A stretch of DNA of 64,000 nt from Spirochaetota bacterium (GTDB lineage Bacteria; Spirochaetota; UBA6919; CBDBPB01). The notes under the pieces are model-generated. The model worked only from the letters and a program-made list of their open reading frames with translations. It was not told the origin of the DNA and ran no database searches. The stretch lies in assembly GCA_965208615.1 (NCBI GenBank), contig CBDBPB010000007.1:128001-192000 (forward strand), in the 5' to 3' direction. The translations under genes were made by a program, and so were the position numbers. Positions 11,527 through 43,023 of the stretch are shown one piece after another (within the stretch, counting starts at the first letter, position 1; every line of letters starts with the position of its first letter).

Positions 11527-12936
11527 CTAACCCACCTTCTCAATGAAGATTTGAGCATAGATAGCCTTAAGACCAGTGGGAGGTGTACGTCTATTAGAGG
11601 ATGCTACGCCTAACGTTTCTTTGGGATTTGGAGCTTCCTTTAGAACATAGTGCTCTAGTTTAAAGTTGTCATCTGAAGAGATATTCAATACCCCTATCAA
11701 ATGCGATCTTGTTTGTACACTTTCAATATCAGAATACTCCCATGAGCCGTTTATTGTTTTTCCTCTATCGCTTTTAATTCTAAAAGTGTGCTTTTGTACT
11801 CGAATAGCTGGTGCAGAAGCTCGAATTTTATATATCCCTTTTGGTAATGTAAATTCGTTTTTAGGCTTATCTAATTTTAATCCTGCTATGTTAGTGTCTA
11901 TTTTGTTTAGCTCTCTAGTTGTCCAGGCATTATCTTTAGCTTCACCACCACCTATTCCCATGTGTCTATTTACATCAAGTTCATGCCATATTTTAGCGTA
12001 TTCATATTTTAGCTTTGGTGGAGTGATGGCACCATTAGCTATCTTAGCCGTTTTGATAGCATTATCAGCTACCTTAGTCTTTGTGATGGCACCATTAGCT
12101 ATTTTAGGCGTTGTGATGGCCTCACTATCTACCTTATCCTTTGTGATGGCACCATTAGCTATCTTATTCGTTGTGATGGCATCATCAGCTACCTTAGCCC
12201 TTATGATGGTATTATCAGGTATCTTATCCGTTGTGATGGCACCATTAGCTATTTTAGGCGTTGTGATGGCACCATCAGCTACCTTAGCCGTTTTGATGGC
12301 TTCATTAGCTATTTTAGGCGTTGTGATGGCACCATCAGCTACCTTAGCCGTTTTGATGGCTTCATCAGGGATCTTACTTTCTATAACAGTATCGTCTGCT
12401 ATCTCATAAACGCCTTTTTTTAGCGTTGACTTTTGTCTGGTGATTTCTATTTTTTTATAAGTCCCGTCTGATATGGCTTTTATGATTATCTTTCCGCATA
12501 AAACGCCATGTTCACTTTTATGCTCGTGATCATTAGTATCTTTAACAAGGCTTATTTCAGCAGCAAAACTGCTGTACTCATGCTCTTTAGTAAAAGGGTC
12601 TTCTGATATTTCAGTAGTCTTTACGTCCTCAACAGCTTTTAGGTATACATAGTACTCACCGTACTCAGAGGGCATTGAATGGGTTTTATCCTTGTCTAAA
12701 GAGGCATAATTTCCATTGTAATAAAATCCGTTAGGACAGCTTGTTATTTTTATTTTATCGGTACCTACGGTTTCTATTAATCCGTGATCAGTACCAAGGG
12801 GAGTGCAAAAGCCATCGGTCATATACTTTTCTACATTTCTTTTGATACGACTGCTAAGCTCATCCATAGTGTTAGTCCAATCTGTATCGAAAAACTTTAT
12901 AGGCTTATCCAGATTCCCAAGTTTTAAATATCCCAT
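11527..12936 (-). CDS. Tail fibre C: shared N-terminal anchor, 10-aa repeat shaft, beta-sandwich head
   Basis: N-terminus shared with the other two fibres; AITTxKIANG repeats; distinct C-terminus (FTLPKGIYKIRASAP). Confidence 0.75.
   Translation of the reverse strand: MGYLKLGNLDKPIKFFDTDWTNTMDELSSRIKRNVEKYMTDGFCTPLGTDHGLIETVGTDKIKITSCPNGFYYNGNYASLDKDKTHSMPSEYGEYYVYLKAVEDVKTTEISEDPFTKEHEYSSFAAEISLVKDTNDHEHKSEHGVLCGKIIIKAISDGTYKKIEITRQKSTLKKGVYEIADDTVIESKIPDEAIKTAKVADGAITTPKIANEAIKTAKVADGAITTPKIANGAITTDKIPDNTIIRAKVADDAITTNKIANGAITKDKVDSEAITTPKIANGAITKTKVADNAIKTAKIANGAITPPKLKYEYAKIWHELDVNRHMGIGGGEAKDNAWTTRELNKIDTNIAGLKLDKPKNEFTLPKGIYKIRASAPAIRVQKHTFRIKSDRGKTINGSWEYSDIESVQTRSHLIGVLNISSDDNFKLEHYVLKEAPNPKETLGVASSNRRTPPTGLKAIYAQIFIEKVG
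12020..12400 (-). repeat. 30-bp tandem repeats encoding AI(T/K)TxK(I/V)A(N/D)x
   Basis: ttgtgatggcaccattagctat-type units recur every 30 nt. Confidence 0.9.
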
Positions 12937-12962
12937 GTTATATCCTTTAATGAATAAAATTT

Positions 12963-13532
12963 CTAATCCATGTTTATAATGTTTTTAATTTTGTTGTTAT
13001 ATGTGATCCACTTGCTTAAATTAGAATTGGGATCACGAGTTAAAGTTTTTAGCTTTCTCTTTAAGGATGACATTGTAAGAGAGTGCATTATTGTATTAAT
13101 GAGGGTATCCATAGCCTTACGGTTTAGAGATAGTTCTTTGGATGTCTCAAAAGCCTCAGCTATATTAGTTTTAGCCCTTAACTTTTTCTGATCAACATAG
13201 TCAGGATGATTTTTGATTTCTTGATCACTTCGTTTTTTTACGGTTACCTTCATGTTAGGTAGTTCTGAATGATATTTCTTTCTTCGATGATATTTTTCGT
13301 AATCATCTATATGGTGATATTCCTTTCTTAGTCTTGGATCATATTTTTCATAATCCTCATGATCAAGGTTTTCCATAGTATTTGGGTCTATGTAGTACAC
13401 ATATACGTCGTCTTTTATTGGATTAAATTGTTCGTCAAAGACATCTGGATTATTAACTAAAATATAATCCCCATACCGTCCTCTATGATCAATGTCAACA
13501 ACGTTGTTATTATTATCTATTCTTACAAACAT
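12963..13532 (-). CDS. Hypothetical phage protein, possible fibre assembly chaperone
   Basis: Lies between two fibre genes; RBS AGAGGG. Confidence 0.5.
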   Translation of the reverse strand: MFVRIDNNNNVVDIDHRGRYGDYILVNNPDVFDEQFNPIKDDVYVYYIDPNTMENLDHEDYEKYDPRLRKEYHHIDDYEKYHRRKKYHSELPNMKVTVKKRSDQEIKNHPDYVDQKKLRAKTNIAEAFETSKELSLNRKAMDTLINTIMHSLTMSSLKRKLKTLTRDPNSNLSKWITYNNKIKNIINMD

Positions 13533-13550
13533 AATTCCCTCTTTTTATAT

Positions 13551-16154: not shown

Positions 16155-17057
16155 CTAAATGGATATGTTTATCTTAGCTAAAGTATTCAACTTTTTAGCC
16201 CTCAATAAGGATTTTTTAAGTTTATCAGCCTTTTCATCGAGATCAAGTTTTTGTTTAATCTCCTCAAAAGACTGCTTTAGCATGTTGGAGTCTATATCTT
16301 TCTTTTTACTTTTGTCTAGCTTTAACTCATCCACTAAATTATTATGTTCCCTAATGGCTATAACCCTTTGGGATGCCAATTGTAATTCATTACTAAGGCT
16401 AATCTGCTTATCCTTTAAGGCATTAAGCCTTTCTTTGCGTAACTCTTCAATATCCTTTGCCTCAATAAAGGTCTTTTTGTCCTTGTCATATTTAGGCTTT
16501 AATAATTTATCATCAGGATTAATATCAACCCATTTCTGATCAGTAAAATATATGTCGGATAAGTCTATATCCTTAGTCGTTACAAATCCATCATTGTCCA
16601 AAACCGTAACCTTTTTATTAGCCTCTTCCCATTCGCTCTTCGTTTTATTCCATTTTGCTAACTTTAAATCCTTATTAGGCTCTTTAAAAGGCAGATCAGG
16701 CACCTTATCAAAGCATCCACCCTCATTAAGGTCATTTAAGAAGTATCCGTCTTTGTCGATCTTATAAGACGGCTCAGGGATATAATAAGCCTGATCCCAA
16801 TGGCCTTCTATCGCCATATAGTTGTCCCATATCCATCTGTCAACCTTATTAGCCATTCGCCAATCAAGACTTTTTAGTTTAGACTCATATTCGTCACTAT
16901 GCTCAAAAGGGGAATTGTTAAGCTTAGGCTCAAGTTCTGTAGCATCAGACGGCACCTGAGGATCGTTAGAGTTAGGTAATGGCAAAGCCTTACTAGAGTG
17001 TTTATATACCCCATTTTCAGCATCAAAAAAGTATATCGTTGTGTTAGACATATTCAT
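16155..17057 (-). CDS. Putative tail fibre assembly chaperone
   Basis: Follows the collar fibre; IYFFDAENGVY...P.DATELEP and W....W motifs are typical of Tfa-like proteins. Confidence 0.6.
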   Translation of the reverse strand: MNMSNTTIYFFDAENGVYKHSSKALPLPNSNDPQVPSDATELEPKLNNSPFEHSDEYESKLKSLDWRMANKVDRWIWDNYMAIEGHWDQAYYIPEPSYKIDKDGYFLNDLNEGGCFDKVPDLPFKEPNKDLKLAKWNKTKSEWEEANKKVTVLDNDGFVTTKDIDLSDIYFTDQKWVDINPDDKLLKPKYDKDKKTFIEAKDIEELRKERLNALKDKQISLSNELQLASQRVIAIREHNNLVDELKLDKSKKKDIDSNMLKQSFEEIKQKLDLDEKADKLKKSLLRAKKLNTLAKINISI

Positions 17058-18543: not shown

Positions 18544-19440
18544 CTAGGACCTAATAGCCACTCCGTAAAGTTCATCTCCATTTTCTACGTCTCTTTGTAT
18601 TTCCCAGTTTTCGCCGTCAGAGGAACTAAGTATAGTCTCTTTATCCCCCACAGCTATGAACTTATTATTTGCATAGGCAACTTTGTATAACCGTTTATCA
18701 GTGAAGTTTTTGTTATTATCCTTATCTATTATTTTAGTCCAATCTTTGTCGTCATTAGATGAGCTAAGGATAGTGCCACTCTTTCCCACAGCTATGAACT
18801 TATTATTACCGTATGAAACTCCCTCTAAGTCTTTATCAGTGAAGTTTTTGTTATTATCCTTTTCATTCACTATTTTAGTCCAGCTTTCGCCGTTATTAGA
18901 TGAGCTAAGGATAGTGCCATCCGCTCCCACAGCTATGAACTTATTATTACCGTATGAAACTCCCTCTAACTGATTAGTAGTTTCACTTGTTTGTTTAGTC
19001 CAAGTTTTTTCATTATCAGAGGAGCTAAGGATAGTGCCACTCTTTCCCACAGCTATAAACTTATTATTACCGTATGCAACTCCATATAAGTACTTCTCAG
19101 TGAACTTTTTGTTATCCTTATCTAGTATTTTAGTCCATATTTTTTCATTATCAGAGGAGCTAAGGATCCTACCCCAGTCTCCCACAGCTATGAACTTATT
19201 ATTTCCATAGGCAACTTCATTTAAGTAATTAGTAGTTCCACTTGTTTGTTCAGTCCAGCTTTCGCCGTCAGAGGAGCTAAGGATAGTGCCACCCGCTCCC
19301 ACAGCTATGAACTTATTATTACCGTATGCAACTTCATGTAAGGCTTTATCAGTAAAGTTTTTGTTACCATCATCTTTATTTACTATTTTAGTCCAATCTT
19401 TGCCATCATTAGAGCCAAGGATAGAACCACTTTTTCCCAC
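18544..19440 (-). CDS. Beta-propeller repeat protein, probably the C-terminal part of the upstream tail-protein-I-like gene
   Basis: ~7 blades of the same repeat as fibre B; frame stays open upstream to the TAA at 19594-19596. Confidence 0.7.
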   Translation of the reverse strand: MGKSGSILGSNDGKDWTKIVNKDDGNKNFTDKALHEVAYGNNKFIAVGAGGTILSSSDGESWTEQTSGTTNYLNEVAYGNNKFIAVGDWGRILSSSDNEKIWTKILDKDNKKFTEKYLYGVAYGNNKFIAVGKSGTILSSSDNEKTWTKQTSETTNQLEGVSYGNNKFIAVGADGTILSSSNNGESWTKIVNEKDNNKNFTDKDLEGVSYGNNKFIAVGKSGTILSSSNDDKDWTKIIDKDNNKNFTDKRLYKVAYANNKFIAVGDKETILSSSDGENWEIQRDVENGDELYGVAIRS

Positions 19441-19593
19441 AACTATATAGTTTATTTCAGTAATAGATTCAATATAGTACTCATATCCAGGGACTCTTTT
19501 CTTTAATATAGATTTAAGCTCATCTATAGATTTAAGTTCCTTATTAGTAGACGGGTTGGGTTTAGATTTAAGTTTATATTCATGTGAATCTTT

Positions 19594-20344
19594 TTAGTTT
19601 TCTTTATTCCGTTTACGTTCTAATTGGTTGTACTTAAGTTTATAGTGGTCCAATATCTTTTTTATAGCCTTTTTACCTGTATAAGGCATGAGGTAAACAC
19701 CTTGATAAGGCTCAACAATATCATCAAGGGTTCTTTTAATGAGGTCTATATTTATACCAGGCATATTGAAGAAGCGTATATAAGCTCTGGACCAAGTTCT
19801 CTTATGTGAGGTAATAAAGCTAAGTTTTTCGCTTTTGTCTTCGTCACTATTTTCGCTTTTGTTTTTAAGAATTCTAATGGTAAGATCGTGTTCATCATCA
19901 ATTGAATTTATATTTAAGTTTTTACTATAAAACTCTAAAAACTTTTTAATAGCCTCTCTTGGTATACCAGGGCTATTAGCACTATTAATCATTATCTCCT
20001 TGATTTTCTCTATATGTTTTCTAAAGTCACTATCTGATTCTTCTTTAACCTCTTTATTTTTAACCTCATCCTTACGACTAACTCCGTATAACTGGCCTAT
20101 AAGGTCTAAAAACCTTTTCTCAGCAGTATTCAAAAATAGTTGTTTGGCAAGGTAGTTTATCTTTTTTAGTGAGCGATCCTTAATTAGAATATCAAATATG
20201 GTATTATGGAACTTATAGATATTCGATTTCTTAGTAAGGCTGGTTATAGTAGGGGGGACAGTTACTCCAAACGTCTTTGTCAAAAGTTATATCCACCTCT
20301 GGAGCTGTTTTCTCAGTATCATCTGAATTAGCTGGATTACTCAT
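19594..20344 (-). CDS. Baseplate wedge / tail protein I-like (P2 gpI, Mu gp48 position); apparent frameshift near 20240
   Basis: LFLNTAEKRFLDLIGQLYGVSR...ESDSDFR motif; ATG 20344 overlaps the baseplate J stop and reads MSNP...DVWSNCPPYYN in another frame. Confidence 0.65.
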
Positions 20345-21670
20345 CTTGGAACCTCATTAAAATCTTCAAACTTTAACTTAGGCCAACCTTTATCTTTATA
20401 ATAATCTATTATAATATTAGGCTTAGGATCAATAATCCCTTTATTAATATCAATATCCTTCCAAGGCTGACCAGTATCGCTATCATTATTAGGAATCTTT
20501 ATGGAACCAGTCTTAATATTAAAAACATTAGGAGCGTTTATAATAAAGCTTTCCATTTTTTCTTTAACAAAGACATCTCCTGGATTAAACTTATTAAAAT
20601 ATTGATCAAGTGCATCTTTAATATCTTTTTCAAGGGGTTTAGTTTTTCTATAGTATATAGTAAGTTCAATTTTAATTGGTTGTACTTCAGCAAGACTTAC
20701 AAAAGCTCTCCAGTTAGCTAATGGCTTATGCTCTTTAGCATTAATCTTATTTTCGATATCTTTAGGATTAATACTAGCATTACTAGAGTCCTTATATCCT
20801 CTTACAATAATCCCAACAGAACCTTCACCATGCATTCGTGGTACAATCTTTGCTTCTTTTACTAATTCTTGTGATTCAGCTTTAGCTTTAAACCATCCAA
20901 TAGATCCCTCTACTGAACCGCTAGCACTATGTATGATTCTTTGTCTAAAATCGTCATCGCTTTCTTTGTCTATACCTCCTCCGATAATGCTTTTATTTCT
21001 TACATAATCAAAATGTTGAACAGCGGTTGATATTTCTGTTATCATTGCCCCATTTATACTTATCCCCGCCTTTTAAGGCTATTACAGGCACTTCTACACG
21101 ATATACCTTTTTATCATCGTCATCAATGGTATTATCCTCATAAGGCTTGGTTTCTTCATTAATTTCAACATCATTTAGTGTTTTAAACTTCAAAGGCTCA
21201 TTGTTAATAGTACTTTTAGCAGCCACAATATTACCTTTCTTAAATGTATAAGTGATTTTAGGCTTAGTGGTAGCACCAACATACACCTTTCCAACGGCAT
21301 TAGTTAGGATTTTACGCTCTATACTATATCTTTGTGCATGTAGGTCAAGCCATTCGTCTTCAGCGGTCTGTACAAGCATTTGTTTTTTAAGCTCTTCAAT
21401 ACCCTTATCTAAGACTTCATACTGCATGAGGGCGAATATCTTTAACACTCTCATTATTTTACCTTGTGGTCTTAAGTTAGAGATACTTTTATCATCACTT
21501 TCATTATCAGGTTTAACAACATTATTATAAAAACGAGTAATTAAGTCCTCTAACAAGTCGTTAAACTCGGGTTCTTTTTCGATTATACTATCTAACAACA
21601 AGTTATAATCGCTTCGTGATAACTTCTTATCTTCGATAAGCTTTACTATTTCTTTTACACTTTCATTCAT
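20341..21670 (-). CDS. Baseplate J/gp47-like protein, split by a 1-nt frameshift near 21055
   Basis: QTAEDEWLDLHA in the first ORF; GGIDKESDDDFRQRI and PRMHGEGSV in the second; removing one A joins them (YNGAMITE). Confidence 0.8.
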
Positions 21671-22741: not shown

Positions 22742-22825
22742 TATATAAAAGCTAATGTAGAAACCTGATAAGGCAAGTACACTTATGCTATATATGCTAT
22801 ATATGCTACCTTTCTAAAAAAGTGA
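22742..22825 (-). promoter_or_regulatory. Late promoter with 9-bp direct repeats, upstream of the spike operon
   Basis: Minus strand: (TAGCATATA)x~3, then TTGCCT-N16-TAGCTT. Confidence 0.6.
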
Positions 22826-25842: not shown

Positions 25843-25881
25843 GGTGTTTTTCCTTTTATTTTGCAGGATTTGATGATAATA

Positions 25882-26949: not shown

Positions 26950-27022
26950 TATGAACCCTCCAAAAAGTTATGCTGTAAAGTTAGCCCGTAAGGATAGGGG
27001 ATATCAACATTCACCTGCGATA

Positions 27023-27056: not shown

Positions 27057-27090
27057 ATTCTAGTTTTCAGGAAGGGTTAAGAAGTTTTTT

Positions 27091-28791: not shown

Positions 28792-28855
28792 AGTTATTAC
28801 CTCATATTTTTATTTTTGCCTTATAGGCTAATACTTTATCTTAATATAAAAAGTT

Positions 28856-29494: not shown

Positions 29495-29640
29495 GTATGC
29501 TCCCTATACCAATAAGTCGCTTTTAAAGTGGCAAGGCGACGAGTCGCTTTAAAGGGTGACTGATCACTAAGCTACGTAGCCAGCTACTCTAATGTGACCT
29601 GGCTGTGTGTACACCTTGTGGGTATCATCAAGCCGTCTAT

Positions 29641-29695
29641 AAAATTAATATATAAAAATGTAGAGTCAAGCCTGGTTATGCTATATATGCTACTT
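29641..29695 (-). promoter_or_regulatory. Promoter with two 9-bp repeats
   Basis: TAGCATATATAGCATAA upstream of TTGACT-N16-TAATTT. Confidence 0.5.
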
Positions 29696-29698
29696 TTC

Positions 29699-31357
29699 TT
29701 ACGCTGTATGAGCTAATACTTCTTTAACATTATGTCCCTGAGGAACACTAGAATTAGTTATTTCGTTATAGGCCTGATACAGCAGTTGAGAAATCCCATT
29801 AAGCTTATCTTTATTATCTGGATGACATCTAACTAGCTGGTTAATATTATCCTCAGTCAATATATTATCATTATTTTCAGTATTAGCATGAGAGTCATTA
29901 CTAAAAAGATTTTCCAAGTTATCATTATAGCTAGCTTTGACTACTCTTTCAGTGTTGGCTACTCCTACAGCATTTCTGAGTACCGGATTAAGAGATTTTC
30001 TCCTAAGAGATCTTTTCCTAATAAGATTTGCCAACTTGTTATAGTTATATGCCAAGTTCTTATAATTAGCGGTATTAGCTACTCCAGCTATCTTGTCATT
30101 CTTAGAACCAATTCCTTTAGTGTTGTTAGTATATTCCACATTTGTCTTTGTAAATAGATTACTAATTCTGTTATGATTATCATTTACAAAAAGTCTACTC
30201 TCATCGTTATCAAATGCGGCAGCAAGTATGTCAGAATGACTAACTCCTGTTTCTTTTATTAGGCTATTTATATTTAGGTTATATAAAGAAGCGTACATCT
30301 CTCTAGATTTCACATCACTAGTTAGGTACGGATCTGTAGCATATCTGTATTGTTTTTTTATATGTCTAAGAAAGTTCGCGTATTTACTCTGTAATATTCC
30401 TTTTCTATATCGGTAGAATTCTTCCATTGCAGCTTGACCACTAAACCTATCCCATTCACGCCCTTCTGCTGCTCTTGAGTTAATCTTTAAAATTGTTGGA
30501 TAACTAATATAATGATTAATTGCCTTAGCTTCAGCTTGCTTATCAAGTACCATATATAGTGATCTAGCAGCATAATATTCATTAAGATCAAGGTCAGTAT
30601 CTGGAGTATAAGGTATATTCGTGCCTATCTTAGCATCAAGTAATAGTCCTAATAAACCTAAGTTATTTTTATTATTAGTAATGGAGCTCCACATATTTCT
30701 ATAACCAGTAGCAAAGTTTTTTGACTTACCCTTAACTTTTTTATATATAGCAAAAGGAATAGTAAAAGATTCCTTGTCTTTTAGTACAGTATCAATTGTT
30801 ACTGAATTATTAGAACTATTTCCCAAGTACTCATTAATTATGTCCACAATAGCTCCAGAACTTCCGAATACAGACCCAAGTCCATGTTTACCAATTAGAT
30901 TTTTAGGAATATTACTTACGGCATCTTGTATAGGAGTCCAAGACTTCATATATGAATCAAATGTTTTACTATTAATAACAACTGGCTTATTTTTAGTACC
31001 AATTGATTCTAAGTAATTATCAAACAGCTCACTAATAACCATACCATGATGAGCACCTAATACACTGTAGCTTTTTTTAGTTCGTATATTACGATAGATA
31101 GCTAAACTGCTCAGTAATAACCCAATGATTGTTCCAACCGCGGCTGGTGGAACAGAACTAATACCAGCAATTAATATTGTTAATAAAATATTATTAATCA
31201 GTTTCCTCTGATCTTCATTCTTTTCACTTTTAAAAATACTTTTAACATTTTTATCCTTTTTAATTGCTCTATCTAATAGGTTTTCATGGTGATAGTTTTT
31301 TAGAATACTGGGGGCATTATTCTTAGAAAGATTAGCTATACTACTTGTTTTTCCCAT
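29699..31357 (-). CDS. Tape-measure-position protein, paralogue 1
   Basis: Directly downstream of the G/GT chaperone; 552 aa; hydrophobic segment near the N-terminus. Confidence 0.55.
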   Translation of the reverse strand: MGKTSSIANLSKNNAPSILKNYHHENLLDRAIKKDKNVKSIFKSEKNEDQRKLINNILLTILIAGISSVPPAAVGTIIGLLLSSLAIYRNIRTKKSYSVLGAHHGMVISELFDNYLESIGTKNKPVVINSKTFDSYMKSWTPIQDAVSNIPKNLIGKHGLGSVFGSSGAIVDIINEYLGNSSNNSVTIDTVLKDKESFTIPFAIYKKVKGKSKNFATGYRNMWSSITNNKNNLGLLGLLLDAKIGTNIPYTPDTDLDLNEYYAARSLYMVLDKQAEAKAINHYISYPTILKINSRAAEGREWDRFSGQAAMEEFYRYRKGILQSKYANFLRHIKKQYRYATDPYLTSDVKSREMYASLYNLNINSLIKETGVSHSDILAAAFDNDESRLFVNDNHNRISNLFTKTNVEYTNNTKGIGSKNDKIAGVANTANYKNLAYNYNKLANLIRKRSLRRKSLNPVLRNAVGVANTERVVKASYNDNLENLFSNDSHANTENNDNILTEDNINQLVRCHPDNKDKLNGISQLLYQAYNEITNSSVPQGHNVKEVLAHTA

Positions 31358-31987
31358 TATAAAATTCCTCTAAAAACTTGATATCAGCTATAAGTTTGTA
31401 ATAGTCATCCGATAGCGGTAGGATGGTGGATTCGCTAATATTTTTATTAGGGAACCACCTACCGGCAAGCAAGTATACAGAAGGGTCATATCCCACTTCT
31501 ATAGAGCCAAGTTTTATATACTTACCTTTATTGAGTTCTGTTACCCGCTTGTCTATTAATTCTTTCCCGCTTCGGCTATTCCAACCCCCTCTTTGGTTAG
31601 GAGTATATTACCCAAACTGAGCAGGAAGGTTGCTGGGACTTCGTGATTATCAAAACTTATATCATTAATTAGTTTTAAAGTTCCGCCCTCACTGTTACCA
31701 GCAGCCATGAGCCTACAGATTTGTATATTTTGATCTAACCCATCCTTTGACGGTTTATTAATCACTCTCATAAGCCTTTTAACATCGGCTGAGTGGAATA
31801 TTCCACTAAATTCAAAGTCGGGTTCATGCACTAAATATACCCGTTTATTTTTTTTAATGACAATATCAATCTCAACCTTATGATTGTTAAATGCTTTAAC
31901 ATCCTCGTTATTGTCCAAGAAGTCTTTTGGATCAACTCCGTCTTTAATTTTATCTCTGTGTCTGTGCAAGCTAATGCAGTATATCAT
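31341..31987 (-). CDS. Tail assembly chaperone G (31556-31987) and GT fusion via programmed -1 frameshift
   Basis: G GGA AAG slippery site at 31562-31568 just before the stop; -1 frame open for ~73 codons to TAG at 31341. Confidence 0.8.
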
Positions 31988-34411: not shown

Positions 34412-34487
34412 AGTTAATACCTAAACTCTATTAGGCAAGGACAGTTATGCTATATATGCTATTTGTGCTACCTATCTGAAAAAAGTT
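34412..34487 (-). promoter_or_regulatory. Late promoter with 9-bp repeats for the sheath/tube operon
   Basis: TAGCACAAA-TAGCATATA-TAGCATAA, then TTGCCT-N16-TAACTT. Confidence 0.6.
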
Positions 34488-34703
34488 AGGAAAAAGCTGG
34501 GTATTCCATGAAAAACCTTGACTGACACAATAATGCTGAGGGTTTGGATAAAAAAATATTTTTATTTTAGCCAGAAATTGTATACCGAGAATATAAAAAA
34601 ACTAATTATTAAACAATTGCTATCTAGTTTGGCTATATGATATTATCTTTTAAAAAGAGAAGTAACTAGTCAAATCCAGCAAGTTGAGATTACTGACGTT
34701 AAA

Positions 34704-34943
34704 ATGGAAAAGCTTAAAAATGAGATAACTGGTGCTGAATCAAGGCTGAGAGTGGAGTTAAAAGCAGTCGAAAATAAAATATTAGCTGTGGAAAATAAGC
34801 TTGACAGTAAAATATCAGATGTCGAAAATAGACTTGATAATAAGATTAGTAAACTGGAAGGCATGATGAAGGTTGTTATAACGATAACATCGGCTACAGC
34901 AATAGGAATTGTCATGCTAATGCTTAAGGATATTTTTAAATAG
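34704..34943 (+). CDS. Bdr/DUF1640-like coiled-coil membrane protein, copy 1 (5'-truncated)
   Basis: Lacks the MITDDLRQE start and RBS; otherwise matches the other copies. Confidence 0.55.
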   Translation: MEKLKNEITGAESRLRVELKAVENKILAVENKLDSKISDVENRLDNKISKLEGMMKVVITITSATAIGIVMLMLKDIFK

Positions 34944-34980
34944 CCCGCTTGACAGTGCTATACCTCAAAAGGAGAGAAAT

Positions 34981-35301
34981 ATGATAACGGATGACCTAAG
35001 ACAGGAGATAAAAAGAGAAGTAACTAGTCAAATCCAGCAAGTTGAGATTACTGACGTTAAAATGGAAAAGCTTAAAAATGAGATAACTGGTGCTGAATCA
35101 AGGCTGAGAGTGGAGTTAAAAGCAGTCGAAAATAAAATATTAGCTGTGGAAAATAAGCTTGACAGTAAAATATCAGACGTGGAAAATAGACTTGATAATA
35201 AGATTAGTAAGCTGGAAGGCATGATGAAGGTTATTATAACGATAACATCGGCTACAGCAATAGGAATTGTCATGCTAATGCTTAAGGATATTTTTAAATA
35301 G
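34981..35301 (+). CDS. Bdr/DUF1640-like protein, copy 2
   Basis: KISDVENKLD repeats, C-terminal TM, RBS AAGGAG. Confidence 0.8.
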   Translation: MITDDLRQEIKREVTSQIQQVEITDVKMEKLKNEITGAESRLRVELKAVENKILAVENKLDSKISDVENRLDNKISKLEGMMKVIITITSATAIGIVMLMLKDIFK

Positions 35302-35338
35302 CCCGCTTGACAGTGCTATACCTCAAAAGGAGAGAAAT

Positions 35339-35659
35339 ATGATAACGGATGACCTAAGACAGGAGATAAAAAGAGAAGTAACTAGTCAAATCCAGCAAGT
35401 TGAGATTACTGACGTTAAAATGGAAAAGCTTAAAAATGAGATAACTGGTGCTGAATCAAGGCTGAGAGTGGAGTTAAAAGCAGTCGAAAATAAAATATTA
35501 GCTGTGGAAAATAAGCTTGACAGTAAAATATCAGATGTCGAAAATAGACTTGATAATAAGATTAGTAAACTGGAAGGCATGATGAAGGTTGTTATAACGA
35601 TAACATCGGCTACAGCAATAGGAATTGTCATGTTAATGCTTAAGGATATTTTTAAATAG
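35339..35659 (+). CDS. Bdr/DUF1640-like protein, copy 3
   Basis: As copy 2. Confidence 0.8.
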   Translation: MITDDLRQEIKREVTSQIQQVEITDVKMEKLKNEITGAESRLRVELKAVENKILAVENKLDSKISDVENRLDNKISKLEGMMKVVITITSATAIGIVMLMLKDIFK

Positions 35660-35696
35660 CCCGTTTAGCAGTGCTATACCTCAAAAGGAGAGAAAT

Positions 35697-35963
35697 ATGA
35701 TAACGGATGACCTAAGACAGGAGATAAAAAGAGAAGTAACTAGTCAAATCCAGCAAGTTGAGATTACTGACGTTAAAATGGAAAAGCTTAAAAACGAGAT
35801 AACTGGTGCTGAATCGAGGCTGAGGCTGGAGTTAAAAGAAGTGGAAAATAGACTTGATAATAAGATTAGTAAACTGGAAGGTATGATGAAGGTTATTATA
35901 ACGATAACATCGGCTACAGCAATAGGAATTGTCATGTTAATGCTTAAGGATATTTTTAAATAG
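35697..35963 (+). CDS. Bdr/DUF1640-like protein, copy 4 (shortest full copy, 88 aa)
   Basis: As copy 2, fewer repeats. Confidence 0.8.
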   Translation: MITDDLRQEIKREVTSQIQQVEITDVKMEKLKNEITGAESRLRLELKEVENRLDNKISKLEGMMKVIITITSATAIGIVMLMLKDIFK

Positions 35964-36000
35964 CCCGCTTAGCAGTGCTATACCTCAAAAGGAGAGAAAT

Positions 36001-36366
36001 ATGATAACGGATGACCTAAGACAGGAGATAAAAAGAGAAGTAACTAGTCAAATCCAGCAGTCTGAGATTACTGACGTTAAAATGGAAAAGCTTAAAAATG
36101 AGATAACTGGTGCTGAATCAAGGCTGAGAGTGGAGTTAAAAGCAGTCGAAAATAGACTTGATAATAAAATATCAGACGTGGAAAATAGACTTGACAGTAA
36201 AATATCAGACGTGGAAAATAAGCTTGATAATAAAATATCAGACGTGGAAAACAGGCTTGATAATAAGATTAGTAAGCTGGAAGGTATGATGAAGGTTATT
36301 ATAACGATAACATCGGCTACAGCAATAGGAATTGTCATGTTAATGCTTAAGGATATTTTTAAATAG
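36001..36366 (+). CDS. Bdr/DUF1640-like protein, copy 5 (121 aa)
   Basis: As copy 2, more repeats. Confidence 0.8.
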   Translation: MITDDLRQEIKREVTSQIQQSEITDVKMEKLKNEITGAESRLRVELKAVENRLDNKISDVENRLDSKISDVENKLDNKISDVENRLDNKISKLEGMMKVIITITSATAIGIVMLMLKDIFK

Positions 36367-36403
36367 CCCGCTTAGCAGTGCTATACCTCAAAAGGAGAGA
36401 AAT

Positions 36404-36757
36404 ATGATAACGGATGACCTAAGACAGGAGATAAAAAGAGAAGTAACTAGTCAAATCCAGCAAGTTGAGATTACTGACGTTAAAATGGAAAAGCTTAAAA
36501 ATGAGATAACTGGTGCTGAATCAAGGCTGAGAGTGGAGTTAAAAGCAGTCGAAAATAAAATATTAGCTGTGGAAAATAGACTTGACAGTAAAATATCAGA
36601 CGTGGAAAATAAGCTTGATAGTAAAATATCAGATGTCGAAAATAGACTTGATAATAAGATTAGTAAACTGGAAGGTATGATGAAGGTTATTATAACGATA
36701 ACATCGGCTACAGCAATAGGAATTGTCATGTTAATGCTTAAGGATATTTTTAAATAG
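36404..36757 (+). CDS. Bdr/DUF1640-like protein, copy 6 (117 aa)
   Basis: As copy 2. Confidence 0.8.
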   Translation: MITDDLRQEIKREVTSQIQQVEITDVKMEKLKNEITGAESRLRVELKAVENKILAVENRLDSKISDVENKLDSKISDVENRLDNKISKLEGMMKVIITITSATAIGIVMLMLKDIFK

Positions 36758-36794
36758 CCCGCTTGACAGTGCTATACCTCAAAAGGAGAGAAAT

Positions 36795-37193
36795 ATGATA
36801 ACGGATGACCTAAGACAGGAGATAAAAAGAGAAGTAACTAGTCAAATCCAGCAGTCTGAGATTACGGATGTTAAAATGGAAAAGCTTAAAAATGAGATAA
36901 CTGGTGCTGAATCGAGGCTGAGAGTGGAGTTAAAAGAAGTCGAAAATAGACTTGATAATAAAATATCAGATGTCGAAAATAAGCTTGGCAGTAAAATATC
37001 AGATGTCGAAAATAAGCTTGACAGTAAAATATCAGATGTCGAAAATAAGCTTGACAGTAAAATATCAGATGTCGAAAATAGACTTGATAATAAGATTAGT
37101 AAACTGGAAGGTATGATGAAGGTTATTATAACGATAACATCGGCTACAGCGATAGGAATTGTCATGCTAATGCTTAAGGATATTTTTAAATAG
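36795..37193 (+). CDS. Bdr/DUF1640-like protein, copy 7 (132 aa)
   Basis: As copy 2, most repeats. Confidence 0.8.
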   Translation: MITDDLRQEIKREVTSQIQQSEITDVKMEKLKNEITGAESRLRVELKEVENRLDNKISDVENKLGSKISDVENKLDSKISDVENKLDSKISDVENRLDNKISKLEGMMKVIITITSATAIGIVMLMLKDIFK

Positions 37194-37227: not shown

Positions 37228-37740
37228 TTATAAACTATATCCAATGCCGACTAACCAATAAAAATCCCCTTTATGTTTATATATATACTCATATCCCCCT
37301 GTCAGGAAGAAGTTAAAGCTTTTCAAAGCCTTAAAAGGACTAATACGTACAGAGGCCTCTGTTCTAAGTTTGTCATTGCTTACTCCAAAATTAATGGACA
37401 TGCTTATCCATTTGTGAGCAAACTTTTTATTTCTTAACTTTTCGTATTCCTTTATCCAAAAGGTTTGCTTATCCAGACTGTTGTTTAGCTTAGTCCTTAC
37501 AGCAATAAGCTCATTAGTAATCTCTATACTCTGCTTTAGCAAAGCCTTATACCTTTTTCTGAGATTATAATTAACCTGCCTTAGCTCTATTATAACCCTA
37601 TTGGCATCCTCAAGTCCTTTATACAGGTCTATAGCGGCCTTTTTGTGATTGTTTTCATTATTTGCCTGTGCTATAGTGCTTATAACGCTCAAGGAGATTA
37701 TTAATATCCACTTTAGAGCGAACTTTTTTATTTTTCTCAA
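37228..37740 (-). CDS. Exported coiled-coil protein with C-terminal beta strands (u-spanin/OM-anchor-like)
   Basis: Signal peptide, long helix, amphipathic strands ending LVGIGYSL; last gene of the lysis operon. Confidence 0.45.
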   Translation of the reverse strand: MRKIKKFALKWILIISLSVISTIAQANNENNHKKAAIDLYKGLEDANRVIIELRQVNYNLRKRYKALLKQSIEITNELIAVRTKLNNSLDKQTFWIKEYEKLRNKKFAHKWISMSINFGVSNDKLRTEASVRISPFKALKSFNFFLTGGYEYIYKHKGDFYWLVGIGYSL

Positions 37741-37939
37741 ACTCTATTTCCTCTTTTTTAAGTTCATTTAGCTTTATTTTAATGGTTTTGATTTTTGAGT
37801 TATTATCTTTTTTATTTTTTTTAATTTCTTTTTTTCTTTCTATAAGATTATGCCAATTTAACTGGCTGTTCTTGTTTACCATAAAGAAAATAGCAATAGC
37901 TATTATAATAGCTATTGCGATAATTATAAGTTTTTTCAT
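37658..37939 (-). CDS. Membrane-anchored coiled-coil protein (i-spanin-like)
   Basis: N-terminal TM plus Lys-rich helix, in the lysis operon. Confidence 0.45.
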   Translation of the reverse strand: MKKLIIIAIAIIIAIAIFFMVNKNSQLNWHNLIERKKEIKKNKKDNNSKIKTIKIKLNELKKEEIEFEKNKKVRSKVDINNLLERYKHYSTGK

Positions 37940-37954
37940 TGTACTAGCCTATTG

Positions 37955-38062
37955 TTATCCAGCGTATAGTAATAGTACAGCTAAACAAATAGCACCTATG
38001 GTAAGGGCTATTATTTTCCAATGTTTAGCTAGTTGACCAAGTATTGTCTTGACGCTTGTCAT
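37955..38062 (-). CDS. 35-aa single-TM peptide (not in the ORF track)
   Basis: MTSVKTILGQLAKHWKIIALTIGAICLAVLLLYAG; RBS AAGGAG. Confidence 0.5.
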   Translation of the reverse strand: MTSVKTILGQLAKHWKIIALTIGAICLAVLLLYAG

Positions 38063-38318
38063 AGTTTTTACTCCTTAAATTAAAAGTTAGATTTTCTATA
38101 AAACTATCCTTATTCTTCATAGAGAATTTTCTTAGATAGAAGTCGAAAAACTCGAAAGAACCATCTTTATCCGCAGAAAAATATTTACTATTATTCTTCC
38201 AGACATCTTTTTCATGACCCCCGAATTCTGACCACTTTTTTATTAGAGTGTTCTTAGCTTTTTTGAGATTTTCATTGTACCACAAAAATTCACTTTTAAA
38301 GCTTAATTTTTTAGCCAT
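38025..38318 (-). CDS. Hypothetical phage protein
   Basis: ORF abutting the upstream gene; RBS GAGG. Confidence 0.5.
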   Translation of the reverse strand: MAKKLSFKSEFLWYNENLKKAKNTLIKKWSEFGGHEKDVWKNNSKYFSADKDGSFEFFDFYLRKFSMKNKDSFIENLTFNLRSKNYDKRQDNTWSTS

Positions 38319-38741
38319 TTATAACCACCTCATAGTTTTTCTATCCTTATATTTTAGTGATGACCCAGAAGTTAGACCAGTTGGTTTAACATTAGTTCCG
38401 AGTTTTGATGTATAAGCTGTCATAAAGTATGTTAAAAACAGCAAATACGTACTCACTGACCTACCGAGGGAGCTTTCCAGTTGTTTAGCTCTATCTTGCC
38501 AAGATTTCAGCTGTTCCTTAGTTATTTTAAGCTCATCCCATTTTTTAACTACGATAGAAAAGGCAATTTGGATGTTCTTATGCCTAATGTCGTTCATTTT
38601 AGTTTTGGTGTATTTTCTAATGTATACGTTACTTCTAAGGATAGAGTCGTCAACCATCTCTTTTTTAGTTTTTACGTATACGATATTCCCCACTCTACCG
38701 CTTATAGCAGAGACTGGGTAAGCTAATTGTATTTTAGCCAT
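38319..38741 (-). CDS. Hypothetical basic phage protein
   Basis: MAKI...ISGRVGNIVY motif; RBS AGGAGG. Confidence 0.6.
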   Translation of the reverse strand: MAKIQLAYPVSAISGRVGNIVYVKTKKEMVDDSILRSNVYIRKYTKTKMNDIRHKNIQIAFSIVVKKWDELKITKEQLKSWQDRAKQLESSLGRSVSTYLLFLTYFMTAYTSKLGTNVKPTGLTSGSSLKYKDRKTMRWL

Positions 38742-38919
38742 ATATATCCTCCTATATTTTTTTTAGAATAACCTTTTTATAAGGTTATTAAGATCCTTAT
38801 TTAATAAGGCAGTGTTAAGTTTTTTAGTCTTACTGGGATATCGTCTAATATATAGTTTATTTTTTCTATTTACTAGTACGAACTTTCTTATATCGTTTTT
38901 GTTGAATGCAAACTCTATA

Positions 38920-39132
38920 CTAGCCATTATTGCTGTCCCTATTATCTAAATAGCTGTTTAATCCGTTGTGAGCCACATTACCCACGATATAACTAGCGCC
39001 AATGACCTCCACAACATCCACCCAGTTATCGCTATTTATTATATTATTCATAAGCAGTATGGTAGCGGATATTATAATTATAATAGTTACAATGAACTTT
39101 CTGCTTATGATAGAGCCAATTTTTTTATTCAT
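38920..39132 (-). CDS. Putative holin
   Basis: 70 aa, two TMs, SRKF motif, adjacent to the endolysin. Confidence 0.65.
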   Translation of the reverse strand: MNKKIGSIISRKFIVTIIIIISATILLMNNIINSDNWVDVVEVIGASYIVGNVAHNGLNSYLDNRDSNNG

Positions 39133-39590
39133 AGATAATTATTAGGCATAATGCCTTCCCAGAGTTTATAAGACCTCTTATTTTTTATGGGATAGCTTAC
39201 CATTAAGACTTTCCCGCCATAATCTTTATAATTTCTGTCTATGTGGAACCAAGGAATGCCGTCTATTCTGCCATTCCACTCCATAATAACTCTAAAACCG
39301 TTATTGGTGCTGAATTGGAACCAGTTCATAGATAATTTATATAATTTTATATTGTCCTCATAGAATTGTATATCTATAGCCTTACCCAGCCCGTGCGACC
39401 CCTTATCCTTTGGCCTATAGGTGCTATTAATCCTAATAGGTTCTTTTATGTATGACCTCAATTTTTGTATTAGTTCCATAGTGTGTATGAGGTTTCTTTT
39501 AATTTTGCCTGGCAGTTCCAGCCAATTATACGGGCAGTCATCAAGATTAGGGTTAACTATTTCGTTTATGGTAAAGTTAGTCCAATTCAT
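39129..39590 (-). CDS. Endolysin, peptidase M15 family
   Basis: INSTYR, SHGLGKAIDI and WFHID zinc-peptidase motifs. Confidence 0.85.
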   Translation of the reverse strand: MNWTNFTINEIVNPNLDDCPYNWLELPGKIKRNLIHTMELIQKLRSYIKEPIRINSTYRPKDKGSHGLGKAIDIQFYEDNIKLYKLSMNWFQFSTNNGFRVIMEWNGRIDGIPWFHIDRNYKDYGGKVLMVSYPIKNKRSYKLWEGIMPNNYL

Positions 39591-39874
39591 TTAAGAGCCT
39601 CTTTTGCGAACCATGCAATAAGTGCTAAACAGCCGGTTAACAATCCCCCTAATACTATTTCCATAATGCGTTTCCCCGCAGTCCTTGTATTAGTAAGGGT
39701 ATTAAGAGCTATACTATGTTCGTCGAGTTTTTTAAGAATTTCGTTATCAGTTATTTTTTGCTCGTTTACAGCCAGTTTAACATATTGCAAATCTTTTTTA
39801 ATTTCAGTTTGTCCAATTTGTAATAGTTTTATATCTTTTTCAGCTTCTTTTAGCCTTTCTTCAGGATCAGTCAT
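39587..39874 (-). CDS. XhlA-like coiled-coil + C-terminal TM lysis-associated protein
   Basis: ERLKEAEKDI helix, C-terminal TM, first gene of the lysis operon. Confidence 0.55.
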   Translation of the reverse strand: MTDPEERLKEAEKDIKLLQIGQTEIKKDLQYVKLAVNEQKITDNEILKKLDEHSIALNTLTNTRTAGKRIMEIVLGGLLTGCLALIAWFAKEALK

Positions 39875-39911: not shown

Positions 39912-39985
39912 AAATATATGTTCAGAAAAGCAATACGGCAAGTCTAAGAATGCTATAACTGCTATAAATGCTATTAGTGTTATTC
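39912..39985 (-). promoter_or_regulatory. Lysis operon promoter with degenerate 9-bp repeats
   Basis: tgctataac-tgctataaa-tgctattag on the plus strand; TTGCCG-N17-TATATT on the minus strand. Confidence 0.5.
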
Positions 39986-41354: not shown

Positions 41355-41774
41355 ATGTTTTACCAATTAAAACTAAAAAAAACTAAAATATTAAAAAAAT
41401 ATAACCTAATCAGCTTGCTACAAAAAGAATTAGGTTTATCCGCCAGTAGCTGTTATAAATTTCTTTTAAAAAAAGAATCTATAGGTTTTCTGAAAAAGAA
41501 AAACCTCTTAAACAAAGAAATCGAAATCTTGAACACTCCAATATTAAAAGAAGGATCTCTTAAAAAACAGGAGCGTAGCTTTTTAACTATTTGTCTTATG
41601 GATTTGTTAAACAATAATCCAAAGATTTTCTCTAAAGAAGAGTGGAAGAGACTTATAAAAATACGCCTTAGAAGGGCTAACCTTAAATATGATAGTAAAA
41701 TAGATGATTGCTCAGAAAAAGAACTACACGAGCTTTCTGAAAAGCTTTATCTAAAAGGATATAAAGGAGAATAA
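41355..41774 (+). CDS. Hypothetical early phage protein
   Basis: ORF in an operon with DUF3102 and GemA-like genes. Confidence 0.5.
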   Translation: MFYQLKLKKTKILKKYNLISLLQKELGLSASSCYKFLLKKESIGFLKKKNLLNKEIEILNTPILKEGSLKKQERSFLTICLMDLLNNNPKIFSKEEWKRLIKIRLRRANLKYDSKIDDCSEKELHELSEKLYLKGYKGE

Positions 41775-41775
41775 C

Positions 41776-42627
41776 ATGGAAAATGATACTGTGAATAACG
41801 GTTTAATAGTAGACGGCCTTATAGAAGGCGTTATGGAAGAGGATATTACAGATGATATAACGGAGAGTTCTATTGAGGAACAGGCAAAGCATACTATAAA
41901 AGATAGCCTAACGGATGGTTTAGTGTTCCATCCTGATAAAACTGCGGGAATAATAAGGGAACTCCATGCTAAAACGCTACTCAGCATTCTCGAAATTGGA
42001 AGGCATTTACTGGTCGCCAAAGAGCGTCTTAATCACGGTGAGTTCGGCCGCTGGATAGAGGATCGATGCGGATTTTCTTATAGCACGGCTAGGAGCTATA
42101 TGCAGATGACCAAGATAGGCTATCTACATAAAAATGAGATAGTTAACATGAAGGCAAGTGCATTTAGGTCAATAGCGAAGGGCAAACTGCCCCCTGATCT
42201 TTTTGGTGAGGTCATGAAAACGGGTATGATAAACGATAAGGAGATTTCTAATATGTCTACAAAAGAGATTGAAAATGAGATTGAAAAATTAAAATCCGAG
42301 ATTGACAAAGAGATAGACAGGCGTATGGATGCTGAAAAGACTTTGGAGATCAGTAAAAACATCTTAGAGGAAAAGGATAAGGAAATATCTAGCCTGGAAA
42401 GCAAGCTGGATAAGCTAAAGAGCCCTGATAAGCAATACGAACTCCACTTTGAACAAACTCAGGATATTATATCCGAGGCGATTTTTAACGTCCAAAAGGC
42501 GAGTTTAAAGTCTCCAAAGCCTAATGACGCTCTTAGTCTTCTGTCTTCCTTAATCATAGCGACAAACAGGCTGGGGGAAGAGTGGGGCGTTAAATGGGAC
42601 GATAAAAGTTTTATAAGCAGAAATTAA
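41776..42627 (+). CDS. DUF3102 domain phage protein
   Basis: EIGRHLLVAKERLNHGEFGRWIE...FSYSTARSYM. Confidence 0.8.
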   Translation: MENDTVNNGLIVDGLIEGVMEEDITDDITESSIEEQAKHTIKDSLTDGLVFHPDKTAGIIRELHAKTLLSILEIGRHLLVAKERLNHGEFGRWIEDRCGFSYSTARSYMQMTKIGYLHKNEIVNMKASAFRSIAKGKLPPDLFGEVMKTGMINDKEISNMSTKEIENEIEKLKSEIDKEIDRRMDAEKTLEISKNILEEKDKEISSLESKLDKLKSPDKQYELHFEQTQDIISEAIFNVQKASLKSPKPNDALSLLSSLIIATNRLGEEWGVKWDDKSFISRN

Positions 42628-42654
42628 GTGTTAAAAGGGTTATAAGGGGTTATT

Positions 42655-43023
42655 ATGCCTATGATGAACTCTATAACCAGCAAGCAAATAGCCAAAATAT
42701 GGTCTTATTCCAATGAGCTTGGCCTAAGCCTGGGTGAGTTGCATAATATAGTAAATACCTTCTTCAGAAAGCCTCTAAGACAGCTATCCGAGGAGGAGGC
42801 ACATAGGCTTATGACATTATTATCTAAATATAGAAAGCCTAATAAGATAGTTAATTTAATTAGTCCCACACAAAGAAAAAGGATACTCAATCTTAAGTCC
42901 AGCCTTAGCTGGACAGAGAATGAGCTAAACTGCTTCTCTATAAAGCTGACTGGTAAACCTTATAGTAAGCTTACCCAAGAGAAGGCATATAGACTAATAA
43001 AAGGTTTAAAATCTTTGTTTTAA
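42655..43023 (+). CDS. Mu GemA/gp16-like (DUF1018) protein
   Basis: QIAKIW....LGL...LS..EA..L...L unit, duplicated. Confidence 0.65.
   Translation: MPMMNSITSKQIAKIWSYSNELGLSLGELHNIVNTFFRKPLRQLSEEEAHRLMTLLSKYRKPNKIVNLISPTQRKRILNLKSSLSWTENELNCFSIKLTGKPYSKLTQEKAYRLIKGLKSLF

Follow-up and report, generated by a model that had tools for sequence, protein, structure and literature searches.

A headless tail-and-lysis element in a spirochaete genome, probably a defective and host-remodelled sibling of a Mu-like transposable prophage

R-type pyocins combine repressor, lysis and tail genes in a headless layout, and an R-type tailocin cannot work without a tape measure. The Afp, PVC and MAC systems are headless contractile particles that are encoded in the chromosome and are built from sheath, tube, baseplate and fibres. 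According to the parts of the source that are drawn on here and below, in Pseudomonas syringae the Mu-like R-type syringacin has retained a tape measure, and its cluster, which is conserved in many strains, forms killing particles of about 142 nm (PMC4542187). Transposable prophages of the Leptospiraceae, as described in the portion of their report that was searched, feature two divergent arms that extend from a central regulatory region, with gemA near one end and no Mor/C; their lysis genes lie beside the head module, and their tail genes, ordered as sheath, tube, tape measure, hubs, wedges and fibre, occupy the end of the element (PMC8705779). Some of these prophages are disrupted by insertion sequences, and that same portion of text describes no headless derivative (PMC8705779). 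Here we describe element A, about 32 kb of phage-like DNA between trxB and a cluster of transfer RNA (tRNA) genes, which occupies positions of about 11127-43023 in a 64,000-nucleotide window of a Spirochaetota genome (contig C7, positions 128001-192000; other loci are given in the same way, as contig and position). An earlier note on this window had proposed that the locus is a complete Mu-like tail without a head that was domesticated as a weapon. We favour, with limited confidence, the reading that A is a non-autonomous, host-remodelled defective derivative of a B3/Mu-like transposable myovirus and a sibling of prophage B, which resides on the same contig.

The source genome comprises 2.46 Mb in nine contigs, with 31% G+C and an estimated completeness of 99.4%. 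Through a copy of the sheath gene at C7:447574-449082 we found B (C7:424829-460178; 35.3 kb), which lies 254 kb from A, and a blastp comparison of all A open reading frames (ORFs) with all ORFs of the genome showed that the two elements are collinear. B is bounded by 50-bp terminal inverted repeats that begin with TGTTA and contain two AACGTTCTAA motifs each, and CAGCAC is present on both flanks as a target duplication, which indicates that B is the product of transposition. The early arm of B encodes a GemA protein (Pfam) and a protein of 532 amino acids (aa) whose match to rve is weak, at 23.4 bits and under the cut-off. It also contains genes for an AAA_22 ATPase, for three antirepressor-like proteins with P22_AR_N matches and for a member of the sigma-70 family. 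Regulation and lysis are represented by a repressor and a lysis cassette, the head by TerL, a 991-aa fusion of Portal_Mu and MuF, a protease, a scaffold and a major capsid protein, and the connectors by a head-tail adaptor and a Neck1 protein. The tail genes of B encode sheath, tube, chaperones, tape measure, LysM protein, hub, spike, a 123-aa wedge, an uninterrupted J of 409 aa, an I-like protein of 272 aa and a single fibre, and the 919-aa tape measure matched more than 20 tape-measure PHROGs. B is thus an apparently intact transposable (B3/Mu-like) prophage with a complete gene content, and it fits fully the layout that the consulted portion of text gives for the B3/Mu-like myovirus prophages of the Leptospiraceae, which also reside in spirochaete hosts (PMC8705779). 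FlaA, the spirochaete flagellar sheath protein, had eight matches in the source genome and none in 14 control genomes, and these copies together with the Bdr-family genes of the genome indicate that the host is a spirochaete, as had been thought probable from the window. This host is the sole member of its genus and family in the comparison set, and the family is a deep-branching one that differs from the Leptospiraceae.

Using B as a complete ruler, we determined which modules A has lost. Scans of 30 A ORFs found a PHROG family for 12 and none for the other 18; the matched genes are those for the three fibres, the I-like and J-like wedge proteins, the hub, the LysM protein, the sheath, the endolysin and the repressor. 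No terminase, portal, capsid, protease, integrase or transposase was matched among these ORFs by PHROG, Pfam or NCBIfam. We also compared 53 B ORFs with the window by tblastn (49 at E <= 0.1 and four further at E <= 1), and 23 of them have a counterpart inside A. No A counterpart was detected in this way for TerL, portal/MuF, protease, scaffold, capsid, adaptor or Neck1 of B, for its DDE transposase, ATPase, sigma factor or tape measure, or for the 71-aa protein encoded upstream of its sheath. These results bear out the previous statement that head, packaging, integrase and MuA/MuB genes are lacking, and the head and replication modules are cleanly gone, also as stated, with boundaries at gene ends. 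DNA homology between A and B ends at 37224, which is the stop of the o-spanin-like gene and the point at which the terminase gene of B starts, and the gap between the DUF3102 and GemA-like genes is 27 bp in A, the place at which genes for transposase and ATPase and a 127-aa gene are found in B.

The ends of A are likewise incomplete. The only terminal repeat detected is that on the fibre side, 23 bp upstream of the start codon of trxB, and no matching repeat was found at the gemA-side end with two mismatches allowed. None of the features that mark a transposable prophage, namely two inverted repeats with a target duplication, a DDE transposase with its ATPase, and head and packaging genes, was found in A. 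These module losses and the single terminal repeat indicate that A can neither transpose nor package DNA and does not amount to a whole phage. A shares the layout of the Leptospiraceae prophages, as far as it is given in the portion consulted, but lacks the transposase with its ATPase, the head and its connectors, the tape measure and one of the two ends (PMC8705779). The closest kin of A is this group of transposable prophages, and A is a defective derivative of that kind.

It is extremely improbable that A is instead a full phage with head and replication genes at another place in the genome, or that its headlessness is an artefact of assembly. Head genes were looked for in the rest of the genome and do exist on the same contig, but the only Portal_Mu and Terminase_6N matches of the genome lie within B, inside its own inverted ends and target duplication; the earlier note had named head genes outside A as a refuting finding, but their presence in B does not by itself exclude a tailocin. 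Independent Logan contigs from run X1 were compared with window positions 19500-34400 (runs X2 and X3 yielded only tiny fragments), and they cover 19765-34400 except for gaps at 21833-21983, 28179-28444 and 29002-29270. At least one indel of the assembly is not shared by an independent contig, which would favour an artefact, but over the covered range the contigs agree with the assembly in all but one base, and the presence of only one terminal repeat in A argues in the same direction.

Two of the segments that A has lost are now occupied by families of host type, bdr-like genes in place of the head module and four orphan paralogs, presumably membrane proteins, in place of the tape measure. 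The bdr-like genes encode proteins of 88-132 aa that feature two to six copies of an 11-residue repeat, the number of which varies, and a C-terminal hydrophobic anchor, and the array repeats in tandem with periods of 358, 304 and 403 nt, the units of which match at 93-97%. In tblastn searches the array aligned with genes annotated as bdr on plasmids of Borrelia, with identities of 39-46% and E values down to 4e-10. Most of the matching records, 247 of 269, are from Borrelia or Borreliella, and 19 are from Thermus, which indicates that the likeness is partly one of coiled coils; no Pfam or NCBIfam family exceeded its threshold. Within the array, the ratio of nonsynonymous to synonymous substitution rates (dN/dS) is 0.00-0.04 at dS 0.10-0.26. 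Because the differences are mostly at synonymous sites, the copies are live genes under purifying selection. Many Borrelia bdr genes are located on cp32 prophage plasmids, and the array of A resembles Borrelia Bdr in its conserved N-terminal part, short tandem repeats, C-terminal anchor and prophage-derived setting. In contrast to Borrelia bdr, it is chromosomal and belongs to a non-Borrelia spirochaete, in which single genes adjoin ordinary host genes and seven stand in tandem in A. One such single gene is located at C5:29013-29300, between neighbours that we take to be pstB and phoU from their N-terminal sequences.

The orphan paralogs A552, A212, A566 and A292 occupy the slot in which B encodes its tape measure. 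Five matches to this family were found among 1.84 billion representatives, all from the source genome. Profile-profile alignment (hhalign) with the tape measure of B gave a probability of 0.6%, a profile search of PDB returned nothing, and the best score in the ESM Atlas was 0.77, which is below the usable level. The paralogs are rich in Asn and Tyr, and three of the four have an N-terminal hydrophobic segment by a crude window calculation; by a similarly crude calculation, the tape measure of B is rich in Ala and has six central hydrophobic segments. The tape measure that an R-type tailocin requires was therefore not found, and chaperone-position ORFs are present. The dN/dS of A212 against A566 is 1.09, and A212 looks neutral in this comparison. 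Partial paralogs of the A552/A566/A292 family are clustered at a host locus, C4:560146-561972. The tail had previously been called complete; sheath, hub, LysM protein, J and fibres are indeed there, but the tape measure is absent, the I-like gene is broken and J is split in the assembly. The list of tail genes on which that description was based passes over the tape measure, and both the seven-gene bdr-like array and the four orphan paralogs are missing from it.

Lesions in the I-like wedge gene are also consistent with decay. Relative to B, this gene has a +1 shift in a run of six C near 20255, which puts roughly the first 30 codons in another frame, and the same shift is present in the independent Logan contig. 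Two indels in A-runs (19572 and 19598) put 26 bases out of frame and thereby create an in-frame TAA at 19594. We estimated dN/dS by the NG86 method for 16 A-B gene pairs, of which five had saturated dS and 11 gave a defined ratio, and the I-like gene shows the highest value among these 11 (0.42). Downstream of its stop, no further stop interrupts this frame from 19593 into a fibre fragment with BNR repeats but no anchor, and the junction is a deletion scar.

Comparison with other genomes revealed no conserved copy of A. A sheath match was obtained in three of 41 searched genomes, one of which is the source genome, and among 5.8 billion clusters there were three sheath homologs, two of them from the source genome. 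Scans with the single sheath protein yielded nothing in genome and viral contigs, and a scan with the sheath alignment yielded nothing in metagenome contigs and two distant loci in viral contigs (35-36% identity over 44-81 residues). Among phage records, tblastn with the sheath detected six Flavobacterium phages only, at 26% identity. The locus itself was compared in relatives, as had been suggested: in one relative of the same order, a distance of 4.9 kb separates trxB from the same tRNA-Pro(tgg)/tRNA-Arg(tct) pair as in the window, and the interval contains no A-like or B-like gene; in a second, no tRNA is present in the stretch examined around trxB, which reaches about 6.5 kb to one side and 12.5 kb to the other.

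These observations lead us to lean, with limited confidence, toward A being a cryptic prophage under remodelling by its host, a reading that rests on B as a complete ruler, the missing modules, the orphan slot, the lesions in the I-like gene, the single terminal repeat and the empty locus in a relative. A has kept one terminal repeat, the repressor with a short early arm, the lysis cassette, most contractile-tail genes and three fibre genes; gone are the DDE transposase with its ATPase, a second terminal repeat, all head and connector genes and the tape measure. Alone, it would be unable to transpose, to package DNA or, most likely, to build a tail of determined length. The lysis and tail blocks stand behind a promoter box that is also used by the host, and they may still be transcribed together.

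Several observations weigh against this reading. The sequence TAGCA-N4-TAGCA-N8-CTTG occurs in five exact copies in the window versus 0.00 expected from 100 shuffles, and all five are intergenic and on the late-gene strand. Genome-wide there are 12 copies, of which five are in A, seven precede host genes and none is in B. This distribution suggests coordinated expression that is perhaps linked to the host, and the pattern looks like rewiring rather than neglect. The module losses of A fall exactly at gene and module boundaries, which random decay rarely achieves, and the majority of late ORFs are uninterrupted and have dN/dS values against B of 0.07-0.42, which mostly reflect phage history. 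A552 starts in the tape-measure position, where it overlaps the last part of the chaperone ORF, and could set length without being recognisable as a protein of that kind. Furthermore, some lesions may be assembly errors or minority variants. J is split into two ORFs near 21050 in the assembly, in contrast to the single ORF of 409 aa in B, but in a contig of run X1 (depth 3.6) one base of an A/T run is missing at 21053, which results in a continuous frame of 442 codons that aligns better with B. The J split is an assembly error or a minority variant and is not a firm sign of decay. For the indels at 19572 and 19598, no A-type contig of run X1 covers the relevant stretch (19500-19764), so these two lesions are given by the assembly alone. 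Inactivating mutations in core tail genes, which had been named as a finding that would undo the weapon proposal, are thus present in part, as the shift in the I-like gene is seen in two assemblies but the J frameshift is absent from the independent contig.

All 12 boxes lie directly upstream of a -35-like TTGAC or TTGCC. The host copies are located at C2:78647, 90598, 118273, 119885 and 135932, C4:588514 and C7:38757, and the genes that follow them are presumably those for lipoprotein paralogs, a nuoA-like protein, a P-type ATPase-like protein and a twin-arginine translocation (TAT)-signal protein, to judge from their N-terminal sequences. An Rfam search of five host loci with the box returned nothing. 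The single late promoter of B has a different repeat, and at least two of the boxes of A lie in gaps that B does not have, because the corresponding B genes overlap. The repeated boxes could also, we infer, have acted as recombination sites for clean deletions. The dedicated promoters of the earlier note were recovered as this specific box; a generic sigma-70 promoter scan remained at chance (94 sites versus 82.8 +/- 8.2 in shuffles).

In an alternative that we consider unlikely, A is a working R-type tailocin. Stress would lift repression, the five boxes before the gene blocks would drive lysis and tail genes, A552 would act as the tape measure, and headless contractile particles with up to three fibre types would be released by lysis and kill competitors. 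As far as the syringacin is described in the parts of its report used here, A resembles it in its headless layout of regulator, lysis and Mu-like tail genes without replication genes and in its fixed chromosomal site, but A has no recognisable tape measure, has a broken wedge gene and is known from genes alone (PMC4542187). Intact ORFs remain for the sheath, for the tube, chaperone, spike and gp25 positions, for the LysM protein, the hub and the fibres, and the clean module losses, the continuity of J in the independent contig and the starting position of A552 would suit a tailocin. The N-terminal membrane segment of the A552 family and its Asn/Tyr-rich composition are nevertheless unlike the tape measure of B by the crude calculation described above, the I-like wedge gene is frameshifted in two assemblies and has a fibre fragment fused in frame behind it, A216 shares only 26 residues with its counterpart in B, and no other genome searched has a conserved copy.

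A toxin fusion had also been proposed, and the sole candidate for it is the C-terminal part of the hub. Beyond residue 289, the hub of A continues with a Lys/Gln-rich linker and then an orphan domain of about 240 aa (residues ~380-618), for which no relatives were detected in Pfam, PDB, the ESM Atlas or 5.8 billion clusters (searched for protein lengths of 339-1082 only); the toxin domain is thus unsupported. Of the points behind the proposed domesticated weapon, the headlessness, the repressor/lysis/tail set, the clean losses, the boxes and the fibres hold, whereas the missing tape measure and the broken I-like gene speak against it and the toxin lacks support. We likewise consider it doubtful that clean module losses carved out of a transposable phage a headless set of tail and lysis genes that became domesticated, which would be the first of its kind in a spirochaete, with its genes rewired onto the five boxes and with A552/A566 as tape measure or parts borrowed from B, in which case A would be a tail-donating satellite. 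A full-text search found no description of a spirochaete tailocin, in agreement with the earlier statement that none is characterised, with subscription journals outside its coverage, and the case for one is open rather than made. A also differs from Afp, PVC and MAC in that no AAA+ ATPase (by Pfam, in the scanned ORFs) and no payload or effector family was found in it, and in being the sibling of a transposable phage at about 40-92% identity; the absence of a detected AAA+ ATPase or payload indicates that A is not an extracellular injection system.

Another alternative, for which we see little probability, is that A depends on B. The tail, baseplate and fibre proteins of A would be made upon induction of B and would assemble with its tape measure and connectors into alternative baseplates and fibres or mixed tails, so that B capsids would gain a wider host range. 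A lacks exactly what B supplies, its tube- and chaperone-position proteins are 76-81% identical to those of B, and each of its three fibre genes carries the anchor of the single B fibre. In addition, a 902-bp tract at 37224-38119, which contains the spanin-like genes, shows 91.6% identity to B compared with about 70-80% or less elsewhere in A, an apparent sign of recent recombination or exchange between the two elements. However, the box of A is absent from B and the late promoter repeat of B is different, so co-induction is not indicated; moreover, the hub and LysM proteins are only 38-39% identical, the first tail gene is almost entirely different, and the repressors are only 41% identical.

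Should particles be produced by A, spirochaetes would have their first tailocin-like system, and assembly of a contractile tail would then either need no canonical tape measure or be able to draw on parts of a resident phage. Even as a defective prophage, A, together with B and a third piece, C, shows within one genome which modules go and what the host puts there. The seven-copy bdr-like array in a prophage remnant bears on the origin of the Borrelia Bdr family and on its association with prophages.

Table 1. Features of element A and its flanks, in window positions; identities are to the corresponding gene of B unless another is named.
Feature	Position	Strand	Evidence or remark
trxB	10163-11104		E 1.6e-101 to solved thioredoxin reductases; one flank of A
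Fibre-side terminal repeat	11127..11175		starts TGTTA, contains AACGTTCTAA motif; ~75% identity to right end of B
Tail fibre 3, 469 aa	11527..12936	-	phrog_892 1.2e-25; N-terminal anchor 62% identical to fibre of B
189-aa ORF between fibres	12963..13532	-	no match in PHROG, Pfam or NCBIfam
Tail fibre 2, 861 aa	13551..16136	-	common N-terminal anchor, then BNR/DUF6242-type repeats; DUF6242 9.6e-15
300-aa ORF	16155..17057	-	no family match
Tail fibre 1, 479 aa	17068..18507	-	phrog_1858 2.2e-23; Pfam Collar 1.1e-10
BNR-repeat fibre fragment without fibre anchor	18544..19593	-	DUF6242 and PSII_BNR matches
I-like (Mu gp48-position) baseplate wedge gene, broken	19594..20296	-	phrog_7378, phrog_6, phrog_5857
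Baseplate J	20341..21670	-	Pfam Baseplate_J 2.1e-14; phrog_6 on both halves (profile positions 52-207, 212-391)
gp25-like wedge-position ORF, 136 aa	21670..22080	-	69% identity to 123-aa gene
Spike-position ORF, 214 aa	22090..22734	-	52% identity to 209-aa gene; weak DUF2345 (0.004) and VgrG (0.092) hints only
Box copy 5	22774..22799	-	upstream of spike-to-fibre block
Baseplate hub (residues 1-289), 618 aa	22978..24834	-	phrog_4930 1.9e-16; hub of B is 326 aa
LysM/DUF6046 baseplate protein	24838..25920	-	LysM 3.1e-6; 38% identity to 272-aa gene
Box copy 4	25912..25937	-	upstream of LysM-hub block
Four orphan paralogs in tape-measure slot	26071..31357	-	no PHROG, Pfam or NCBIfam family
Orphan paralog A292	26071-26949	-	
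Orphan paralog A566	27091-28791	-	
Orphan paralog A212	28856-29494	-	
Box copy 3	29667..29692	-	upstream of second orphan paralog (A212)
Orphan paralog A552	29699-31357	-	
G/GT chaperone-position pair, 143-aa and 51-aa ORFs	31341..31987	-	76% and 80-82% identity to pair of B
Tube-position ORF, 135 aa	32025..32432	-	81% identity to 136-aa gene
Contractile tail sheath, 398 aa	32444..33640	-	Pfam DUF2586 1.4e-23; phrog_907 tail sheath 1.3e-14
A216, first gene of tail block ('terminator-like'), 216 aa	33739..34389	-	no family match
Box copy 2	34436..34461	-	upstream of A216 gene and sheath
Tandem Bdr-family array, six complete and one 5'-truncated	34651..37193	+	in place of head module, opposite strand
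Lysis cassette	37228..39874	-	63-92% identity to cassette of B
o-spanin-like, 170 aa	37228-37740	-	position and hydrophobic segments
i-spanin-like, 93 aa	37658-37939	-	position and hydrophobic segments
Three A-specific small ORFs (54, 140, 97 aa)	38025-38927	-	inserted in lysis cassette, absent from B
70-aa membrane protein	38920-39132	-	lysis cassette
Endolysin	39129-39590	-	phrog_894 1.2e-7; Pfam Peptidase_M15_3 below cut-off
95-aa membrane protein	39587-39874	-	lysis cassette
Box copy 1	39939..39964	-	upstream of lysis cassette
HTH_17 protein, 61 aa	40054..40239	+	Pfam 1e-7; 73% identity
XRE-type repressor, 142 aa	40613..41041	-	phrog_8 6e-16; 41% identity to repressor of B, 57% to repressor of C
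Shortened early arm: 139-aa ORF, DUF3102, GemA-like	41355..43023	+	without transposase, ATPase and sigma-factor gene
DUF3102 gene	41776-42627		Pfam
GemA-like gene	42655-43023		39% identity to protein of B, which itself passes Pfam GemA
Seven tRNAs	43593-44134		other flank of A

The assignments in Table 1 differ in their basis. Among the tail roles given in the earlier note, those of sheath, hub, LysM protein, J and I are supported by family matches, and those of tube, chaperone and spike by position and likeness to B only. The tube-, chaperone-, spike- and gp25-position proteins had no Pfam match at gathering level and no PHROG match, and searches of PDB sequences with the tube-, spike- and gp25-position proteins gave nothing significant; their genes follow the gene order of B with 52-81% identity, and we name them tube, chaperone, spike and gp25-like wedge by position only. 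The sheath of A is 67% identical to the 502-aa sheath of B, which has an extra insert of about 105 aa. A216 resembles the 183-aa gene of B in its position only over the first 26 residues (46% identity), and the terminator-like label is one of position only. The true start of the LysM protein is likely near 25842, where its alignment to B begins. Multiple fibres had been recognised correctly, as two are confirmed by tail-fibre PHROGs and the 861-aa ORF by the common N-terminal anchor; this ORF is 55% identical to the fibre of B over 575 aa. From its position alone, the 189-aa ORF between fibres may have a role in fibre assembly.

The block of repressor, DUF3102 and GemA-like genes was confirmed by phrog_8, Pfam DUF3102 and the identity to GemA of B. 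In the lysis cassette, the endolysin was identified by a family match, and the putative holin and spanin roles follow only from location and hydrophobic segments. The three A-specific ORFs of the cassette had no family match, and those of 54 aa and 140 aa have similar N-termini. Beyond the seven tRNAs, an Rfam search of the window returned nothing.

C (C3:10639-15823) is an isolated copy of the early arm of B, with 98.5% identity over 5200 bp. It contains a 344-aa gene, DUF3102, the transposase, the ATPase, the 127-aa gene and GemA, adjoins a different repressor and is without lysis, head and tail genes; it could be a mini-element or a by-product of transposition. The sigma-70-family gene of B has a second copy at C4:36385-37161 with 80% identity. 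Because homology between B and C ends at gemA, this gene was considered as a host gene, which was rejected as the terminal repeats place it inside B. In run X1, the sole contig for window positions 19556-19794 has the sequence of B at a depth of 8.87, compared with 3.2-4.8 for A-type contigs, which could mean that B was replicating or present in additional copies in the sample, or could be noise, as the contig is a single short one. Finally, a tandem array of about nine lipoprotein-like paralogs was observed at C1:264765-273860, the repeats of which resemble the BNR/DUF6242 repeats of the phage fibres, and repeat modules may have been exchanged between phage fibres and host surface proteins.

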